Source of the DNA: a bacterium
GTDB lineage: Bacteria > Sumerlaeota > Sumerlaeia > SLMS01 > JAHLLQ01
DNA length: 64,000 bases
Direction: 5' to 3'
NCBI GenBank assembly: GCA_020444065.1
Contig: JAHLLQ010000004.1
Span: 198,662 to 262,661 of the forward strand
In this document: piece by piece, positions 3,010-37,484 of the stretch
Position numbering within the stretch: the stretch's first letter is position 1
How the letters are laid out: each line of letters opens with the position of its first letter
The notes under the pieces: generated by a model
Told to the model about the DNA's origin: nothing
The model's database searches: none
What the model saw: the letters and a program-made list of their open reading frames with translations, nothing else
Program-made: the position numbers and the translations under genes

Positions 3010-4122
3010 ATGTCTTCTGTGCTTCCCAATGCAACGTCTCACCGCTGGCCGGGATTGATCGAACGTTACCGCGAGTACCTGCCGGTGACGGACAAGACAC
3101 CGGTCGTGACGCTGCACGAAGGCAACACGCCGTTGATTCACTGCCCCGCGGTCTCCGAACGCGTTGGCAAGGGTGTGAACGTCTTCGTGAAGTACGAAGG
3201 CCTGAACCCGACCGGATCGTTCAAGGACCGCGGCATGACCATGGCCGTGTCGAAGGCCAAGGAGGAAGGCTCGAAGGCAGTGGCTTGCGCATCGACCGGC
3301 AACACGTCTGCATCGGCGGCGGCCTACGCAGCTCGCGCCGGGATGACCTGCGCGGTTCTGATTCCGTCCGGCAAGAACGTTGCCCTCGGCAAACTCGCCC
3401 AGGCCATGATTGCCGGCGCCAAAGTGATCCGCATCGACGGCAACTTCGACGAGGCCCTCGAGTTCGTTCGCGAGGTTTGCGACAACCACCCCATTACGTT
3501 GGTGAATTCGCTGAACCCGTACCGAATCGAAGGGCAGAAGACCGGCTCGTTCGAGATCTGCGAACAGCTTGGCGGCAAGGCCCCGGAGCTCCACTGTATC
3601 CCCGTCGGCAACGCCGGAAACATCACCGCCTATTGGAAGGGCTACACCGAGTTTCACGCGGCCGGCAAGATCCCCGCGACCCCGACGATGTGGGGCTTCC
3701 AGGCAGAGGGCGCCGCACCCATCGTCCGCGGCCACAAGGTCGACAAGCCCGAGACCCTCGCGACCGCGATCCGGATTGGCAATCCCGCCTCCTGGAAACA
3801 GGCGGAAGCGGCACGCGATGAATCCGGCGGCCTGATCGACATGGTGACCGACGCAGAAATCACCGCCGCTTCGAAGTTCCTTGCGACGCGCGAAGGCGTC
3901 TTCTGCGAGCCGGCCTCGGCGGCTTCCGTCGCGGGGCTGATGAAGAAAGCCGAAGCGGGCCTCGTGGAACCGCTGGTGAAGGAATACGGCGAATTGAACG
4001 TCGTCTGTATCCTGACCGGGCACGGCCTGAAGGACCCCGACTTCGCGATCGGCAACACCGGGGGACTGATCGACATTCCGGCCAGCATGGATGCCGTGCT
4101 GGAGGTCCTTGGGCTGGACTGA
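3010..4122 (+). CDS. thrC: threonine synthase
   Basis: Track ORF 370 aa; PLP-lysine motif GSFKDRG; overall fold-type II PLP enzyme resemblance to ThrC. Confidence 0.92.
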
Positions 4123-4155
4123 TCGCCGGGCGAAACCTCACAAAAGTCTGTCGTA

Positions 4156-4197
4156 CCAGGGCCCGCGGGAAATGTTCCGCGGGCCCTGGTTTGTGTG
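4156..4197 (+). terminator. rho-independent terminator downstream of thrC
   Basis: 15-bp stem CCAGGGCCCGCGGGA / TTCCGCGGGCCCTGG (one G-U pair), 4-nt loop AATG, followed by TTTGTGTG; 34 nt after the thrC stop. Confidence 0.75.
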
Positions 4198-4374
4198 ATC
4201 GAAGCGGCGCAATCCATCCCGCGACTATGACTCTTCTCCAAAAATCGGTCCAAAAATGCTAAATCTCAATTTCCGAATTGTTGGAAATATCGGTCAAAAT
4301 ATGGCCAAAATGGGCATGTTTTGACCAAATAAAGCGCTCAAAGTAGGTTCACCAAATATTAACACAAAATATCG

Positions 4375-4403
4375 TTGACTACACCACGCGCGCTATGCAT
4401 ATT
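4375..4403 (+). promoter_or_regulatory. putative sigma70-like promoter of the nuclease gene (-35 TTGACT, 17-nt spacer, -10 CATATT)
   Basis: Hexamers read directly in the AT-rich island about 55 nt upstream of the GTG start at 4458; 5/6 and 4/6 match to consensus. Confidence 0.4.
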
Positions 4404-4457
4404 CCTCTGTTCTACTGAAGGCAGGCGAAAAATTTTCTCTCGGAAGGAGAAGGCGCC

Positions 4458-7079
4458 GTGACCCCCCATGAGTCATTAGCTTCTCGCGCACATTCGATGC
4501 GCACCCTCTGCAGTACTCTTCTGGTTCTTTCCCTCACATTCCTCATGTCGAGTCTGGCCCTGGCGGATGAATACGATCCCCCTTCCGGCTACTATGATTC
4601 GGCATCCGGACTCACCGGAAGCGCTCTCAAGAACGCTCTCCACAACATCATCGACGATCACACGAAGCTCTCCTACACGCCCGGCGTGTGGACGGCTCTG
4701 CGTGAAATCGATCAGGACCCCAGCAATTCCAACAACATCCTCGACCTGTACTCGAACCGCTCGATCCCCAAGACCGATCAGGATGGCTCGAGCAGCGCGA
4801 CCTACGTTTGGAACCGCGAGCACTCGTTCCCGAAGTCGTTCGGCTTCAACTACGAGAGCTGGCCCCCCTACACCGACGTTCATCACCTGTTTGCGTGCGA
4901 GAAGAACATCAACTCGACCCGCAACAACCACTATTTCGACTGGGCAACCGGTGGCACCGAGTACGCGGTCGTAGGCACGACCGACGTCAACAAACTGCTC
5001 GGCGACGCTTTCGAGCCCTGGGATGGACGCAAGGGCGACGTGGCCCGCGCGCTCTTCTATATGGACACCCGCTACAATGGCGACCAGTCCAACGAGCCGG
5101 ATCTGTCCCTGGATGATGGCCAGCCCGTAACCGGCGAACCCCACATGGCGAAGATCAGCACACTGCTCGAGTGGCACGCGCTTGACCCCGTCGTGCAGTG
5201 GGACCGCCGCCGCAATCACTTGGTCTACACGAACTACCAGCATAACCGTAATCCGTACGTCGACCATCCGGAATACGTTTGCTCCGTTTACGGCGGAGCA
5301 GCCTGCAGTGGCCCGACGCCGACTCCGACCGCTACGACAACGGCCAGCCCGACGCCGACCCCGACGCCGACCCCGACGTCGACCGGTGGCACGTTGACCA
5401 GCGGCGTGACGGTCAGCGATTCCGTCGCCCAGGGCGCCTGGGATCACTACTCGATTTACGTTCCGGCCGGTGCGACTCAGTTGCAGGTCGTCATGACCGG
5501 CACCAACGATGCCGACGTCTACGTCAAGCAAGGCAGCCAGCCGTCCTCGAGCAGTTGGGACTTCCGTCCGTACGTCAACGGCTCGAGCGAGACCGTGACG
5601 GTCAACAGCAGCTCCAACCCGACGCTTGTTGCCGGCAGCATGTACTACGTTTCGGTTTATGGCTACAGCTCGTCGACCTCGTCCTACTCGCTGACGGCGA
5701 CGGTCACCGGATCGTCCACCCCGACGCCGAGCCCGACGGCGACGGCCACGGCCACCGCGAGCCCGACGCCTTCGAGCGCCGCGAACCTGTTCTTCACCGA
5801 GTACGTTGAAGGCTCCAGCTACAACAAGGCCGTCGAGATCTACAACGGCAGCGGCTCCTCGGTCAGCCTCTCCGGCTGGTCCGTGCAAGTGTTCTTCAAC
5901 GGCGGCACCTCCGCCGGTTCGACGATCAACCTGTCCGGCACGCTGGCCGCGGGTGATGTCTACGTCATCGCCGACGATAGCTCCGTTTCCGCTCTGACGA
6001 GCGTTTCGGATATGCTGTTCTCCAACAGTTCCTGGAACGGCGACGATGCCGTGGCCCTGGTTTACAGCGGCACCACCGTCGACGTGATTGGCCGCATCGG
6101 CCAGGATCCGGGCAGCGCCTGGAGCGCCAACGGCGTCAGCACGCAGGACCAGACGCTGCGTCGCAAGTCCACGGTGACCTCCGGCGACTCCAACGGCACC
6201 GACACGTTTGATCCGAGTGTCCAGTGGATTGCCTACAGCATTGACGACTTCTCGAATCTGGGAACCGCCGGCAGCACGTCGCCGACCCCGTCTCCGACGC
6301 CTACGCCGACACCCAGCCCGAGCCCAAGCCCGACGGCTTCTCCGTCGCCCTCGCCGACGCCGAGCTCCGGCGGACTGACCAGTGGCGTGACGATCAGTGA
6401 CAGCGTCGCCAATGGCGCCTGGGATCACTACACGATCTACGTCCCGTCGAATGCGACCCAGTTGCAGATCGTCATGACGGGCAACAACGACGCCGATCTG
6501 TACGTCAAGAGCGGCAGCCAGCCGACCGCCAGTTCCTGGGACTTCCGTCCTTACGTTGGTGGCTCGAGCGAGACCGTGACGATCAACAGCAGTTCCAGCC
6601 CGGCGCTGAACACTGGCGTGACCTATTACATCTCCGTGTACGGCTACGCTTCGGCGACCTCGTCCTACACGCTGACCCCGACGATCACGACGAGTTCCGC
6701 CACGCCGAGCCCGACACCTTCTCCCACCCCGACGGCGACAGCGACATCCACTCCAACCGGTGGCGACATGACGAGCGGCGTGACGATCAGTGAGAGCGTT
6801 GCGTACCATTCCTGGACGCACCACTCGATCTACGTGCCCGCCGGCTCGAGCCAGTTGCAGGTTGTTATGACCGGCAGTGGCGATGGCGACGTCTACGTGA
6901 AGCAAGGCAGCCAGCCGACATCGAGCAGTTGGGACTTCCGGCCGTACGCCTGGGGTTCGAGCGAGACGGTGACGGTGAATGGCAGCTCCAGCCCATCGCT
7001 GGTGGCCGGCAGCATGTACTACATTTCGGTGTATGGATACGAGGCATCCAGCATCAACCTGACGGCGACAATCAACTAG
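4458..7079 (+). CDS. secreted multi-domain nuclease: signal peptide, endonuclease I-family domain, PPC module 1, lamin-tail domain (LTD), PPC modules 2 and 3, joined by Pro/Thr-rich linkers
   Basis: Track ORF 873 aa; RBS GGAGAAGG before GTG 4458 (alternative ATG at 4497 gives MRTLCSTLLVLSL... signal peptide); endonuclease-I-like region (VWNREHSFPKS, ARALFYMD); LTD-like region (ANLFFTEYVEGSSYNKAVEIYNGSG...GDVYVIADD); three about 105-aa modules of the type GVT(V/I)SDSVA...W(D/T)H(Y/H)(S/T)IYVP...DVYVK.GSQP...SWDFRPY resembling pre-peptidase C-terminal domains. Confidence 0.8.
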   Translation: MTPHESLASRAHSMRTLCSTLLVLSLTFLMSSLALADEYDPPSGYYDSASGLTGSALKNALHNIIDDHTKLSYTPGVWTALREIDQDPSNSNNILDLYSNRSIPKTDQDGSSSATYVWNREHSFPKSFGFNYESWPPYTDVHHLFACEKNINSTRNNHYFDWATGGTEYAVVGTTDVNKLLGDAFEPWDGRKGDVARALFYMDTRYNGDQSNEPDLSLDDGQPVTGEPHMAKISTLLEWHALDPVVQWDRRRNHLVYTNYQHNRNPYVDHPEYVCSVYGGAACSGPTPTPTATTTASPTPTPTPTPTSTGGTLTSGVTVSDSVAQGAWDHYSIYVPAGATQLQVVMTGTNDADVYVKQGSQPSSSSWDFRPYVNGSSETVTVNSSSNPTLVAGSMYYVSVYGYSSSTSSYSLTATVTGSSTPTPSPTATATATASPTPSSAANLFFTEYVEGSSYNKAVEIYNGSGSSVSLSGWSVQVFFNGGTSAGSTINLSGTLAAGDVYVIADDSSVSALTSVSDMLFSNSSWNGDDAVALVYSGTTVDVIGRIGQDPGSAWSANGVSTQDQTLRRKSTVTSGDSNGTDTFDPSVQWIAYSIDDFSNLGTAGSTSPTPSPTPTPTPSPSPSPTASPSPSPTPSSGGLTSGVTISDSVANGAWDHYTIYVPSNATQLQIVMTGNNDADLYVKSGSQPTASSWDFRPYVGGSSETVTINSSSSPALNTGVTYYISVYGYASATSSYTLTPTITTSSATPSPTPSPTPTATATSTPTGGDMTSGVTISESVAYHSWTHHSIYVPAGSSQLQVVMTGSGDGDVYVKQGSQPTSSSWDFRPYAWGSSETVTVNGSSSPSLVAGSMYYISVYGYEASSINLTATIN
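5390..7076 (+). repeat. three diverged tandem coding modules (about 5390-5700, 6360-6680, 6765-7076; roughly 80-85% nt identity by eye) plus CCGACGCCGAC-type Pro/Thr-linker microrepeats inside the nuclease gene
   Basis: Hand alignment of the DNA encoding the three PPC-like modules shows long shared stretches (e.g. ggcgtgacg.tcag.ga.agcgt.gcc...gggacttccg.cc.tacg...ggctcgagcgagac.gtgacg). Confidence 0.7.
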
Positions 7080-13719: not shown

Positions 13720-14320
13720 TCTCGAAGAGAAGGTCGATTGAACTCACAGTTGCACGGACGATCCCAGAGCTCAAGTCCTCACTGCACAGGATGTCCAGGA
13801 ATCGGATCATAGAAAGGCATGGTAGGGTCCATTCGGAGCAAAACGGCGTCGTTTGGACCGGTCAATCTTTAACAGCCGTGAAAACCGGCGGGCAAAGTGA
13901 GAGCGGAAATTCGAAGAGAAGTGATTTTCCATGCCAAGCGCCTTCGTTTTATCAAAATCCTGCGACGCGGCTTCTTGTCTTACTCAGTTTGAGCGCACCA
14001 AGACTTCATCGTGAAAGATTGATATAATTGGATTTGTGCTGTTTATTTACCGCTTGAGAAACCGCGGGCGAGCAAGCCCTTAACCAGAGGCCTGGGCACC
14101 CGGTTTTTATAAAACGTTTCATTGTATTTTTCCAAATTTTCGGAATTCGAAAGATTAATCGCGTTGCACGTTCGCACCGTTTTTGATTGAAGTGGTCCAA
14201 CGTCAATAAAGGCTTTGCCTGTCGGGGGGAAGCCCAAGTGACGAAATCCAAATTGTCCGAAAAGTCGAGCGTCGCACCGCACCGCATCGCCGGCTCAGAA
14301 GGGCAGAAGGGAAAGTCACC

Positions 14321-15736
14321 ATGAAGAAATTTAGTAAAGCTCTCGTTGCCGGCGCCGCACTCGCCCTCGCACTGCCGGCAGGCCTCCAGGCCGGTGTTAT
14401 GATGCAAGGCTTCTATTGGGACACCCCCAATGGTTGGTACAACACGATGAAGAACAACGCCTACAGTCTGCGCTACATGACTGGCGGCGAAGGCATCGAC
14501 CGCATGTACTTCCCGCCCCCGTCGAAATGCGCCGGCGGCGGCTACTCCATGGGCTACGACCCGCACGACTATTATGACGTTGGCCAGTACTATCAGCACG
14601 GCACAACCGCCACCCGTTTCGGAACGCAGGCTGAGTTGAAGGCCGCCACCTCCAAGTATCGCGGCTACGGCGTTGTGACGATGGCGGACATCGTCCTCAA
14701 CCACCGCAGTGGCGGTAACAGCGAATACAACCCCAACGCCGGCTACAACACCTGGACGAAGTTCAATAACCAGTCCTCCGGCATGTGCGTGTGGAACTAC
14801 AATGACTTCCACCCGTCGACCTTCGAATGGTCGGACGAAGGCGTTTTTGGTGGCTATCCGGACGTCTGCCACAACACTGGTTCTGCTCCAGGCCAGCCCT
14901 ACGGCGACTTGATCAGTTGGGGCAACTGGCTGAAGAACACCGGCAACGCCGGCTTCAACGGCGGATGGCGCTTCGACTACGTGAAGGGCTATCACCCGTG
15001 GATGTCCAAGGACTTCCGTTACAACACCGGCTACGGCATGGGCGTTGGCGAGTACTGGGATTCCAACACCAGCACGTTGAACTGGTGGGCCGGCTCTGCC
15101 GACTGCCAGGCGTTTGACTTCGCAGCCTACTACACGCTGAAAGATATCTGCACCAACACCGGCGGTGGCGGCTACATGCCAAACCTCGTCAATAGCAACA
15201 AGTCCTTCGCGGCCAAGAACAGCTATCGCGCCGTCGGATTCGTCGGGAACCACGACACCGACGAGATCTTCACCGACAAGATGCTGGCCTATGCTTACAC
15301 GATGACCTACAAGGGCTATCCCTGCATCTACTGGAAGGATTACTTCAACTACGGTCTTGCAACCCTTGGCGGCCAGTGGGGCAACGGCATCAAGCAGTTG
15401 ACCTGGGTTCGTAACAAGCTGGGCAACGGCGGACCGAACGTCCAGAACCTGAAGACCAACGATGGCAACCTGTTGATCTACGGCGACGCCGACGGCAACA
15501 GCAGCCACCCGGGCTTCATCATCGCGATCAACGACGACAGCTACTCCTGGCGCGGCTCCTGGGTCCAGACTTCGAATGGCAACCTGAAGAACAAGACCCT
15601 GAAGTGCTACGCCTGGTACTCGCCCAACAGCGGCCAGAACTATCAGCCCTCCAGCAAGTGGTGTAACAGCAGCGGCTGGGTCGAAGTTTGGGCACCGCCG
15701 CGCGGCTACGCCGTGTACGCGCCTAACGGGTACTGA
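14321..15736 (+). CDS. secreted alpha-amylase, glycoside hydrolase family 13
   Basis: Track ORF 471 aa; signal peptide MKKFSKALVAGAALALALPAGLQA; GH13 conserved regions DIVLNH, GWRFDYVKG, GEYWD, FVGNHD; Asn/Tyr/Trp/Gly-rich composition. Confidence 0.9.
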   Translation: MKKFSKALVAGAALALALPAGLQAGVMMQGFYWDTPNGWYNTMKNNAYSLRYMTGGEGIDRMYFPPPSKCAGGGYSMGYDPHDYYDVGQYYQHGTTATRFGTQAELKAATSKYRGYGVVTMADIVLNHRSGGNSEYNPNAGYNTWTKFNNQSSGMCVWNYNDFHPSTFEWSDEGVFGGYPDVCHNTGSAPGQPYGDLISWGNWLKNTGNAGFNGGWRFDYVKGYHPWMSKDFRYNTGYGMGVGEYWDSNTSTLNWWAGSADCQAFDFAAYYTLKDICTNTGGGGYMPNLVNSNKSFAAKNSYRAVGFVGNHDTDEIFTDKMLAYAYTMTYKGYPCIYWKDYFNYGLATLGGQWGNGIKQLTWVRNKLGNGGPNVQNLKTNDGNLLIYGDADGNSSHPGFIIAINDDSYSWRGSWVQTSNGNLKNKTLKCYAWYSPNSGQNYQPSSKWCNSSGWVEVWAPPRGYAVYAPNGY

Positions 15737-22899: not shown

Positions 22900-23346
22900 T
22901 TATTCCTTTTTTGTCCAACTGGTGACGTCGTCGTCGGTGCCTTCCTGGCCATCCGGACCGTCGCTCCACAGGTCGTAGTCTTTGCTGTGCTCGCCGGGGG
23001 CGCGATAGCGGAACTCGTGGCCCCATTGGTCCTTGGGAACCGAATCGGCGTCAAGATAGGGACCTTCCCACATGCCTTCAGGGGCGTCGCTGGGTTCTTC
23101 GAACAGAGCCTCGAGGCCTTCATTCGTGTCCGGGAAGCGTCCCAGGTGCATCTCGAACTGCGAGAGCCCGAGCTTGATGTTGTGAATCTGGGTCTTGGCA
23201 GCCTGAATCCTGGCTTTCTTTGACTTACCGGCGAGACGCGGGCCGACGATGGCCAGCAGCACGCCGATGATCACGACGACGAACATGATTTCCAGGAATG
23301 TGAAGCCTCTGCGGCCGCGGTTGTTGTGACGAATCATCAAACTCAA
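22900..23346 (-). CDS. gspG: type II secretion / type IV pilin-like pseudopilin (GspG-like)
   Basis: Track ORF 148 aa; prepilin leader and N-methylation motif RRGFTFLEIMFVVVIIGVLLAIVGP. Confidence 0.8.
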   Translation of the reverse strand: MSLMIRHNNRGRRGFTFLEIMFVVVIIGVLLAIVGPRLAGKSKKARIQAAKTQIHNIKLGLSQFEMHLGRFPDTNEGLEALFEEPSDAPEGMWEGPYLDADSVPKDQWGHEFRYRAPGEHSKDYDLWSDGPDGQEGTDDDVTSWTKKE

Positions 23347-23520: not shown

Positions 23521-24975
23521 TCAGTTCCCCTGCCCGCGCTGAATCTGCTTGGTCAGGTACCCCACGATGCTCGCCATGTTGGCGTCCGCATCCACGGCCT
23601 TCTTGATCTTGCGGAACGCATAGATCACTGACGTGTGGTCCTTGCCGCCGAATTTCGCCGCGATGTCGGGGAAGCTCAGGTCCGTCAACTCGCGGCACAA
23701 GTACAACGCCAAGTGACGTGGTTGACTGAATTTCTTGGACCTATTGCTGCCCAGCAGCTCTTGCGGCGTAATCTCGAAGTAATCGCACACGCAGCGCTGC
23801 ACGTCCTCGATACTGACCCGGCTCTGGGGCTGGCCGACCATCAGGTGTCCCAACACCTCGCGGGCGGATTCCAGGTTGATCGGACAGTCGTGCAGTCCCG
23901 CGTAGACCTTGATGCGTTTCAGGGTACCCTCCAGCTCACGAATGTTCGACTTCACGCGCTCGGCGATGAACTGCAGCACGTCGCTCGGGATCCGCAGGCC
24001 TTCCTGGCGCGCTTTCTGCCGCAGAATTGCGATTCGGGTTTCGAGGTCCGGCGGCTGGATATCCGCAATCACGCCCCACTCGAAGCGCGACCGCAGCCGC
24101 TCCTCGAGCGTCGCCAGGTCACGCGGGGGGCGATCGCTGGAAAGCACGATCTTCTTCCCGTCGTCGAACAGCGTGTTGAACGTGTGGAACATCTCGTCCT
24201 GCGTGCGTTCCTTTCCCATCAGAAACTGCACGTCATCCAGCAGCAGAACGTCCACATTCCGGTATTGATTACGGAACTCCACCTTGCGGTTCATCTGGAT
24301 GCTCTCGATGAAGCTATTGATGAACTGCTCGGAGCTCGCATACATCACGCGCACCGTGCGGTCGGCCTCGTACAACGCGTGACCGATGGCCTGCATCAGG
24401 TGCGTCTTGCCCAGACCCGACTGTCCGTAGATGAACAGAGGGTTGAAGGCCTGGGAGTTAGAGTCTGCCACGGATTGGGCCGCTGCGTGCGCGTAGCGAT
24501 TGCTTTCGCCCACGACGAAATCTTCAAACCGATACCGGGGATTGATCCGTGGCGGATCCACGACCCGCGGGCTGGGTGCCGAATGCTGGAAGCCTCGGCG
24601 GCCGCCCATCTGGCGGAAATCCACAACGCTGCGGCGGTGAGACATCCCACCGTCGAATGGCGTCTGCTCTTCCGTGGAAGAGGACTCTTCAGTGCTATCT
24701 GTTTTCTCGCGGACGATCAGATCGACGTCCACATTGCGGCCTGCAGCCTCGCTCATGACCGAGCGCAACTGCCGGCCGTATTTTCGTTCAATCCAGTTCT
24801 GGTAAAACTCGCTTGTGACGGACAAGGTCACCCGCTGTGACTCTTCGCAAATTCCATCAAAAGTTATGGGCAATAACCACGCATTATACTCAGCTTCTCC
24901 CACATTTTCGCGCAAGATATCACGAACCCTGTCCCATACATCGGGCGTGATGCGGGTCATGAAAGAGTGTTCCAT
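23521..24975 (-). CDS. dnaA: chromosomal replication initiator protein DnaA
   Basis: Track ORF 484 aa; AAA+ Walker A GQSGLGKTHL; Walker B LLLDDVQF; C-terminal DnaA signature ...KDHTSVIYAFRKI. Confidence 0.95.
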   Translation of the reverse strand: MEHSFMTRITPDVWDRVRDILRENVGEAEYNAWLLPITFDGICEESQRVTLSVTSEFYQNWIERKYGRQLRSVMSEAAGRNVDVDLIVREKTDSTEESSSTEEQTPFDGGMSHRRSVVDFRQMGGRRGFQHSAPSPRVVDPPRINPRYRFEDFVVGESNRYAHAAAQSVADSNSQAFNPLFIYGQSGLGKTHLMQAIGHALYEADRTVRVMYASSEQFINSFIESIQMNRKVEFRNQYRNVDVLLLDDVQFLMGKERTQDEMFHTFNTLFDDGKKIVLSSDRPPRDLATLEERLRSRFEWGVIADIQPPDLETRIAILRQKARQEGLRIPSDVLQFIAERVKSNIRELEGTLKRIKVYAGLHDCPINLESAREVLGHLMVGQPQSRVSIEDVQRCVCDYFEITPQELLGSNRSKKFSQPRHLALYLCRELTDLSFPDIAAKFGGKDHTSVIYAFRKIKKAVDADANMASIVGYLTKQIQRGQGN

Positions 24976-25055
24976 TTCGTGTCGAGATCGTCTTCGGGAG
25001 ATGTCCCGGCTTCGTCGCCTAGGTCTTGAGAGGTATCAAAGAATCGGAGGGGCCA

Positions 25056-27717: not shown

Positions 27718-27876
27718 CAATTCTTCGAGCTGGAATCCGCGACCGGCGGGGTGGACAACCGGACCGTTCGCGCACCCGGAACGGTAAACTTATGGCTGCT
27801 TCCTTCCGGACCTGACCAGGTTCGTTCCCGTCCGTCGCACGGGGCCCGGCTGTCCACTCCGCCGGCCCGCGGGGGA

Positions 27877-37015: not shown

Positions 37016-37336
37016 TCATTCCACGTCGTCATCGCTCTGGTCGCTCGAGGCGACATCGATGCTCTTGATTTCCTTGCCCGGTTTGAAAGTCACCACGCGG
37101 TGCGAGGGAATCGGGTAGGATTTCTTATTCTTTGGATTCCGGCCCATCCGCGCCTTGCGCTGCTTGACCTGGAAGACTCCGAAGTCTCGGATTTCCAGTC
37201 GCTCATCGCGGATAATCACTTCTTTCACCGACTCGATGATCTGGTCGACGATAATGAGGGCCTCCTTGTCCTTGATCTGTTGTTGATCGTTGGACAGGCC
37301 GTCCGAGATTCGTTTGACGATATCGGCTTTGATCAT
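37016..37336 (-). CDS. HU/IHF family nucleoid-associated DNA-binding protein with acidic C-terminal tail
   Basis: Track ORF 106 aa; IHF/HU arm pattern ...GVFQVKQRKARMGRNPKNKKSYPIPSHRVVTFKPGKEIK. Confidence 0.85.
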   Translation of the reverse strand: MIKADIVKRISDGLSNDQQQIKDKEALIIVDQIIESVKEVIIRDERLEIRDFGVFQVKQRKARMGRNPKNKKSYPIPSHRVVTFKPGKEIKSIDVASSDQSDDDVE

Positions 37337-37484
37337 TTCGGAACCATCGCTCGCATTTCAGGTGTTCTCGACCAAGAAAGAGAAGAGGCACCGCCGTCGC
37401 AAGTCAAATTACTTCAAGCGTTCAAAATTCCTGTGAGGGCAGCGGAGAGACTCGGTCGGAGAGCCCCGGCCTGCTGCATTCTCC

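Follow-up and report, generated by a model that had tools for sequence, protein, structure and literature searches.

A phased A-tract array as a candidate UP-like element upstream of a secreted nuclease promoter in the Sumerlaeota

The AT-rich DNA preceding a large secreted nuclease gene, found in a 64-kb stretch of a Sumerlaeota genome (the window, throughout this text), is in our assessment, held with moderate confidence, an A-tract, UP-like upstream element of the sigma-70-type promoter of that gene. On this reading, the nuclease gene would be transcribed independently and the island would form the upstream half of its promoter region. The CCAAAAT repeats would be C-A(3-5)-T A-tracts that recur with a spacing of about 11.2 bp along one helical face, in a series that begins just upstream of the -35 hexamer and continues for approximately 135 bp. 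The narrow-minor-groove A-tracts beside the -35 would be contacted by the C-terminal domains of the RNA polymerase alpha subunits, and the distal phased series would make of the upstream DNA an arm, bent or writhed in a superhelix and easy to wrap, through which promoter strength is increased or tuned. A conserved 16-bp block at 4325-4340 may add one site for a specific regulator. The evidence comes from the anatomy of the region, from repeat and periodicity statistics, and from the pattern of conservation in the sole usable orthologous locus, a 3-kb ENA contig labelled Sumerlaeia SLMS01 (L045); from these we infer the transcription start, the contacts with polymerase or other proteins and the effect on expression.

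Results

The nuclease gene and its setting

The window has a GC content of 60.6%, with a 1st percentile of 48% per 150 bp. In the region concerned, thrC is followed by a 335-bp intergenic region, the secreted nuclease gene and a gene for a GNAT acetyltransferase. The main features are:

3010-4122, plus strand: thrC, threonine synthase (Pfam PALP, 8.7e-70)
4155-4198, plus strand: intrinsic terminator of thrC, an inverted repeat with a T-rich tail
4200-4457: AT-rich island region, between the thrC terminator and the nuclease GTG at 4458
4223-4372, plus strand: island core with the phased A-tract series, approximately 35% GC
4375-4403, plus strand: sigma-70-type core promoter TTGACT-17-CATATT, 9/12 to TTGACA/TATAAT
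4405-4457, plus strand: predicted 5' leader of the nuclease
4458-7079, plus strand: secreted nuclease of 873 aa (Endonuclease_1, DUF7590, lamin-tail and 3 PPC domains)

The thrC protein is 100% identical to an NCBI entry named 'threonine synthase [bacterium]', and its closest named relatives belong to Candidatus Sumerlaeia. The hairpin of the thrC terminator (4155-4190) is GC-rich, with a 14-bp perfect stem and an 8-nt loop, and so strong a terminator after thrC indicates that the nuclease gene has its own promoter.

The architecture of the nuclease is unusual, with Thr/Pro/Ser linkers between the Endonuclease I, lamin-tail and three PPC domains. Both the nuclease and its L045 ortholog were absent from a search of 5.8 billion proteins, in which the best matches reached 58% identity and were much shorter. 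The gene has a host-like GC3 of 0.82, and its product probably serves in scavenging extracellular DNA. Elsewhere in the window, a type II secretion pseudopilin (GspG) is encoded at 22900-23346 on the minus strand; it may have a bearing on how the nuclease and an amylase-like protein described below are exported.

Composition and repeats of the AT-rich island

The lowest-GC 150 bp of the entire 64 kb falls in the island, at 34.7% against the mean of 60.6%. Only 3 of the 32 intergenic regions in the window have a GC content below 52%, the usual intergenic value being 55-66%. The AT-rich stretch that a sequence-only reading had proposed between the thrC terminator and the nuclease start thus holds the GC minimum of the window, and the motif copies, inverted element and promoter described in that reading were all found in place. 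The repeats are:

4238 and 4250 (4238-4257), plus strand: distal pair of CCAAAAAT, 12 bp apart
4293 and 4304, plus strand: GTCAAAAT and GCCAAAAT, 11 bp apart
4323, plus strand: GACCAAAT, a motif copy
4351, plus strand: ACCAAAT, a motif copy
4363, plus strand: CACAAAATAT, a copy additional to those in the sequence-only reading
4326-4318, minus strand: GGTCAAAAC, the single minus-strand copy
4350-4372, plus strand: proximal repeats CACCAAATAT and CACAAAATAT, 13 bp apart, at the UP-element position
4269-4288: imperfect palindrome ATTTCC-N8-GGAAAT, containing the previously described inverted element TTCCGAATTGTTGGAA (4271-4286)
4292-4326: 35-bp near-palindrome GGTCAAAATATGGCCA-AAA-TGGGCATGTTTTGACC, 14/16 complementary, which contains the 11-bp-spaced pair and the minus-strand copy

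The motif YCAAAWW, which was picked post hoc, occurs six times in the island compared to 1.2-1.7 times in dinucleotide shuffles (P ~2e-4). Because the motif had been chosen after looking at the sequence, we added an unbiased statistic, the size of the largest family of 8-mers with no more than one mismatch, likewise compared to dinucleotide shuffles. The largest such family, CCAAATAT, has six non-overlapping copies, compared to 2.9 in the shuffled sequences (P=0.0005); the exact 5-mer and 6-mer maxima in the island were not above shuffles (P 0.15 and 0.075, respectively). Counting both strands of the window, there are 17 motif matches, six of them within the 258 bp of the island and all six on the plus strand. 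Motif density is 17.9/kb in the island versus 1.27/kb in the remaining 7 kb of intergenic DNA, a 14-fold difference, and is 2.7 times that of a second AT-rich island; no other motif cluster was found within the 64 kb. Within the window, the motif is thus far from equally frequent in other intergenic DNA.

The second AT-rich intergenic island (13720-14320, 49% GC) lies 5' of an amylase-like gene (14321-15736) whose product is probably secreted. It carries, at 14130-14145, the one TTCC-N8-GGAA palindrome that the 64 kb has outside the nuclease island; the two palindromic sequences, TTTCCAAATTTTCGGAATT in the second island and TTTCCGAATTGTTGGAAAT in the nuclease island, match at 15 of 19 positions and lie 191 nt and 187 nt from their respective start codons. 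An element common to both islands was rejected, as global alignment found no similarity and the TTCC-N8-GGAA palindrome is all that they share. The second island also lacks A-tract phasing.

Among the four lowest-GC spots of the window is the 5' end of dnaA (23521-24975, minus strand), with a shift from AT-poor to AT-rich sequence at 24770-24994, and the chromosomal replication origin may lie near this gene. The nuclease island itself was rejected as a replication origin, as dnaA is 19 kb away and direct reading of the island found no DnaA-box-like sequence. A small gene within the island was likewise rejected: its only open reading frames are of 20-36 aa and without support.

Helical phasing and predicted curvature

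The AA periodogram of the island peaks at 11.0-11.3 bp, with P=0.003 within the 10-11.6 bp band and P=0.012-0.016 when any period from 8 to 14 bp is allowed. In a sliding 146-bp scan of the 64 kb, comprising approximately 3,200 positions, the top five all overlap the island, and neither the long intergenic regions nor the remaining AT-rich islands of the window showed phasing. With the opening base of the -35 hexamer as reference, the A/T runs begin at -135, -123, -114, -90, -79, -68, -56, -48/-44, -35, -21 and -9, and they fit an 11.2-bp series across approximately 126 bp. The phased A-tracts suggested from the sequence alone are therefore well founded, being the strongest such signal in 64 kb.

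Curvature was predicted with a wedge model, using Bolshoy-Trifonov parameters. The local bends of 44-49 degrees per 30 bp at approximately 4250 and 4296 are in the top 1%, and the end-to-end ratio, 0.81-0.92, ranks within the top 1.5-2.5% for the window. A period of 11.2-11.3 bp means that the bends do not sum in one plane, and planar curvature is accordingly moderate. The earlier suggestion of intrinsically curved DNA is weakly supported: the island ranks in the top 1-2.5% of the window by this model, but the predicted curvature is moderate and at least 12 other sites bend more, and strong planar curvature is not borne out. The data support an arrangement of the tracts on one face, or a writhed one, and not strongly curved DNA.

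Classical bent DNA is built of phased CA(5-6)T tracts, as in the bending locus of kinetoplast minicircles and in synthetic phased A-tract promoters. The island resembles it in having units of C, 3-5 A and T, about one per helical turn and on one strand. It differs in its period, 11.2-11.3 bp compared to 10-10.5 bp, and in its shorter tracts of 3-5 A, and these two differences explain why the planar curvature predicted for the island is only moderate.

A period of 11.0 bp in TT (P=0.0025) was observed in the AT-rich region 5' of a distant Endonuclease-I homologue (L049, 2640-2830), which has 53% identity to the nuclease and lies in an unrelated context. This peak is the strongest periodicity of that 7-kb locus; as the sub-region was chosen after scanning, it serves only as a hint.

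The core promoter and its UP-like flank

The sequence TTGACT-17-CATATT at 4375-4403 is the only sigma-70-like match in 3900-4700. The assignment of a sigma-70-like promoter here gains from the comparison with L045, where the hexamers and the 17-bp spacing are kept: TCGTTGACTAC and TGCATAT are identical in the two genomes, and in this one relative the spacer is mostly different in sequence but still 17 bp long. Conserved hexamers flanking a drifting spacer are the mark expected of a working sigma-70-type promoter, as far as two sequences can indicate, and transcription is predicted to start near 4410; promoters of this class usually initiate 6-8 nt past the -10.

Upstream A-tracts and UP elements raise bacterial promoter activity by way of the alpha subunit (Aiyar, Gourse & Ross 1998; Estrem et al. 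1998, both as cited in PMC3326320). The nuclease promoter is similar to UP-element promoters of the E. coli rrnB P1 type in having A-tract DNA directly upstream of a consensus-like -35. The A-run adjoining the -35 is kept, as AAAA in one genome and AAAAAA in the other, and its location at the position of the proximal UP subsite is at most suggestive. The UP consensus NNAAAWWTWTTTTNNNAAANNN (-38 to -59) has a best match of 10/14 in both the window and L045, compared to a mean of 7.3 for random sequence of island composition. The match is partial, with a good proximal and a poor distal subsite. The island also differs from UP elements in its extent, as the array reaches approximately -170 from the predicted start compared to -38 to -59, and in its host, an uncultured member of the Sumerlaeota; the alpha C-terminal domain contact proposed here is a prediction from sequence. 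As the core promoter is already good at 9/12, strong help from upstream is not obviously needed.

Conservation of the island in an orthologous locus

L045 keeps the thrC-spacer-nuclease order, and its ATG aligns with the window GTG at 4458, confirming the nuclease start. As this is the only orthologous locus, the footprint rests on two sequences. A contig scan with the nuclease yielded relatives of at most 64% identity, mostly single domains and none syntenic, and a metagenome scan with the alignment gave matches at 38-45% only. In a protein search with the nuclease domain, the best match had 58% identity, and the upstream regions were non-syntenic and not alignable. Five other Sumerlaeia thrC loci (L044, L046/L047, L055, L056 and L057) have no nuclease downstream. 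Nucleotide identity between the window and L045 is as follows:

thrC: 77%
terminator region: 51%
island, 4200-4371: 52%
promoter, 4372-4404: 64%
leader, 4405-4457: 92.5%
nuclease coding sequence: 74%

In the terminator region, L045 has a GC hairpin and T-run at the same place (L045 1605-1640) with a wholly different sequence; by this comparison, the structure of the thrC terminator has been kept between the two genomes while its sequence has changed. From 4236 onward the alignment is free of gaps, indicating an ancestral island rather than an inserted one. A mobile element was rejected for the same reason and for lack of plasmid similarity.

Within the island, conservation is concentrated in a few places. 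AATCGGTCCA at 4243-4252 and TTGGAAA at 4281-4287 are conserved, the latter being all that L045 keeps of the palindrome ATTTCC-N8-GGAAAT. Of the 35-bp near-palindrome, only the AAAAT(A) and TTTT cores are kept, with their spacing unchanged. Also conserved is a plus-strand block, CCAAATAAAGCG(C/T)TCA at 4325-4340, which is identical at 15/16 positions in L045 and lies approximately 45 bp upstream of the -35. The block may be a site for a specific protein, as judged from its conservation; searches found no second copy of it in the window at up to 3 mismatches or in the fetched loci.

The A/T runs at -90, -79, -56, -48/-44 and -9/-10 occupy the same places in both genomes. Across 4280-4374, 26/31 positions in runs of at least three A or T are identical, compared to 29/64 elsewhere (P=0.0004). 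When the conserved block is left out (4280-4371), identity is 19/23 at tract positions and 18/52 elsewhere (P=0.0001); in this block-free stretch, non-tract A/T positions are identical at 13/27 and G/C positions at 5/25 (20%). The distal portion (4236-4279) shows no tract preference (6/16 versus 13/28 identical), the distal CCAAAAAT pair is lost in L045 apart from AATCGGTCCA, and L045 lacks the distal third of the array. The periodicity of L045 taken alone is not significant (P ~0.13).

This pattern does not bear out the claim that (G/T)CCAAAAT is a sequence-specific site present in six copies, as so few of the G/C flanks are identical, the two distal copies are lost and just one copy keeps its CC, that at 4325 inside the conserved block. 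To judge from the two genomes, selection has kept the A-tracts at fixed helical positions and not the C/G bases around the motif, which favors a structural role over an array of six base-specific sites.

Could the repeats nonetheless be sites for a sequence-specific regulator that switches the nuclease on, for example under phosphate limitation? We regard this as unlikely. The candidates would be an OmpR/PhoB-type response regulator on the direct repeats or a dimeric factor on the 4292-4326 palindrome. OmpR/PhoB-type regulators bind, in head-to-tail order, direct repeats that are spaced by one helical turn, and the island offers repeat pairs 12 and 11 bp apart, a palindrome complementary at 14/16 positions, an over-represented and strand-biased motif family, and a conserved 16-bp block that contains one motif copy. 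The phosphate idea is attractive because low phosphate induces nucleases that Vibrio cholerae secretes for eDNA scavenging, the EndA-type Dns among them (PMC4714964). This reading is opposed by the poor identity of the C/G positions, with four of the six or seven copies lost as motifs in L045, by the lack of a second copy of the conserved block in the window, and by the finding of neither a second cluster nor a Pho gene among the approximately 37 of 51 predicted window genes that were put through Pfam. Like Pho boxes, the island has direct repeats at a spacing of 11-12 bp, and the gene that they precede encodes a secreted nuclease. However, Pho boxes are 7-bp CTGTCAT-like repeats with an 11-bp period that overlap and replace the -35, whereas the repeat pairs of the island lie 70-135 bp upstream of a good and intact -35 and are not conserved in L045; direct reading of the island found no repeats of the CTGTCAT type, which may not be the type used by the Sumerlaeota.

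A structural role could also be played through a protein other than polymerase. The phased A-tracts might be a loading platform for a nucleoid-associated protein, either an H-NS-like silencer or a member of the HU/IHF family, that represses the promoter or controls it architecturally, with the DNA not acting directly on RNA polymerase; we consider this quite unlikely. In a window of 60% GC, no other stretch equals the island in AT-richness or in phasing, the retention of A-tracts rather than of a specific sequence would fit minor-groove readers, and the window contains an HU/IHF-family gene at 37016-37336. However, the island is just ~150 bp long and does not extend beyond the intergenic region, no gene of the H-NS type was identified, and the host-like GC3 of the nuclease indicates that it is not a target of xenogeneic silencing. 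The same data are otherwise compatible with either a nucleoid platform or an A-tract/UP-like element. The HU/IHF-family gene is on the minus strand, and its upstream spacer (37337-37484) has two YCAAAWW matches; its product is a candidate for recognizing bent or AT-rich DNA in this organism.

It is improbable that the island is merely an AT-rich spacer whose A-runs and phasing arose by drift or local duplication, with only the core promoter and leader functional: the identity of 4200-4371 is as low as that of the terminator spacer, L045 lacks the distal copies and has no significant periodicity, and the exact 5-mer and 6-mer maxima fall within shuffles, but the unbiased mismatch-family test, the first rank of the island periodicity in 64 kb and the selective conservation of tract positions (P=0.0001) all speak against it.

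The 5' leader of the nuclease

The most strongly constrained stretch of the locus, which the sequence-only reading did not remark on, is the predicted leader together with the opening 30 nt of the nuclease reading frame, at 87-92% identity in 30-nt segments. The leader and first 10 codons (4405-4489) are more alike between the two genomes than the flanking coding sequences are (74-77%). In this stretch the Shine-Dalgarno sequence GGAGAAGG (4446-4453) is able to pair with UUUUCUCU (4433-4440), and a second CU-rich segment, CUUCUC, is present at 4480-4485. The start codon falls within a GUGAC/GUCAU hairpin, in which the GUG-to-AUG difference between the window and L045 turns a G-U pair into an A-U pair.

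The leader, which can pair with the ribosome-binding site and start codon, probably sets nuclease expression also after transcription, and the stretch 4405-4489 may be a translational control element. The predicted folds of the leader RNA did not exceed those of shuffled sequences in stability (z +1.3 to -0.2) and no compensatory changes were found between the window and L045, which leaves an RNA switch as only a hypothesis. No second copy of the leader was found in the window or the fetched loci. A known cis-regulatory RNA was rejected, as an Rfam search of 4100-4560 gave nothing above gathering and, with E to 10 allowed, no credible match (best 20 bits, E=0.11). A 7-codon open reading frame at 4396 was also rejected; it is not conserved and has no ATG in L045. 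The sole Rfam match in the window is a bacterial small SRP RNA at 27754-27851 on the minus strand (66 bits versus a gathering score of 40).

There is little probability, in our view, that the locus combines two lineage-specific devices, namely the A-tract scaffold with the CCAAATAAAGCGYTCA block and a translational switch in the leader. In such an arrangement, the scaffold and block may be read by a Sumerlaeota regulator or nucleoid protein, and the segments at 4433-4440 and 4480-4485 may compete for the Shine-Dalgarno sequence while the hairpin covers the start codon.

Discussion

To our knowledge, the Sumerlaeota (formerly BRC1) have no cultured member, and their promoters and gene regulation are almost wholly undescribed. 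The phased A-tract promoter architecture described here is of a well-known kind; it is unusually clean for this genome and basically ordinary, and the locus does not challenge present understanding. Its value is as a clean comparative example that brings together a sigma-70-type promoter, a phased A-tract upstream region, a constrained leader and a large secreted nuclease. As such, it could be used as a reference promoter architecture for the Sumerlaeota and as a test case for A-tract promoter tuning in a GC-rich genome.
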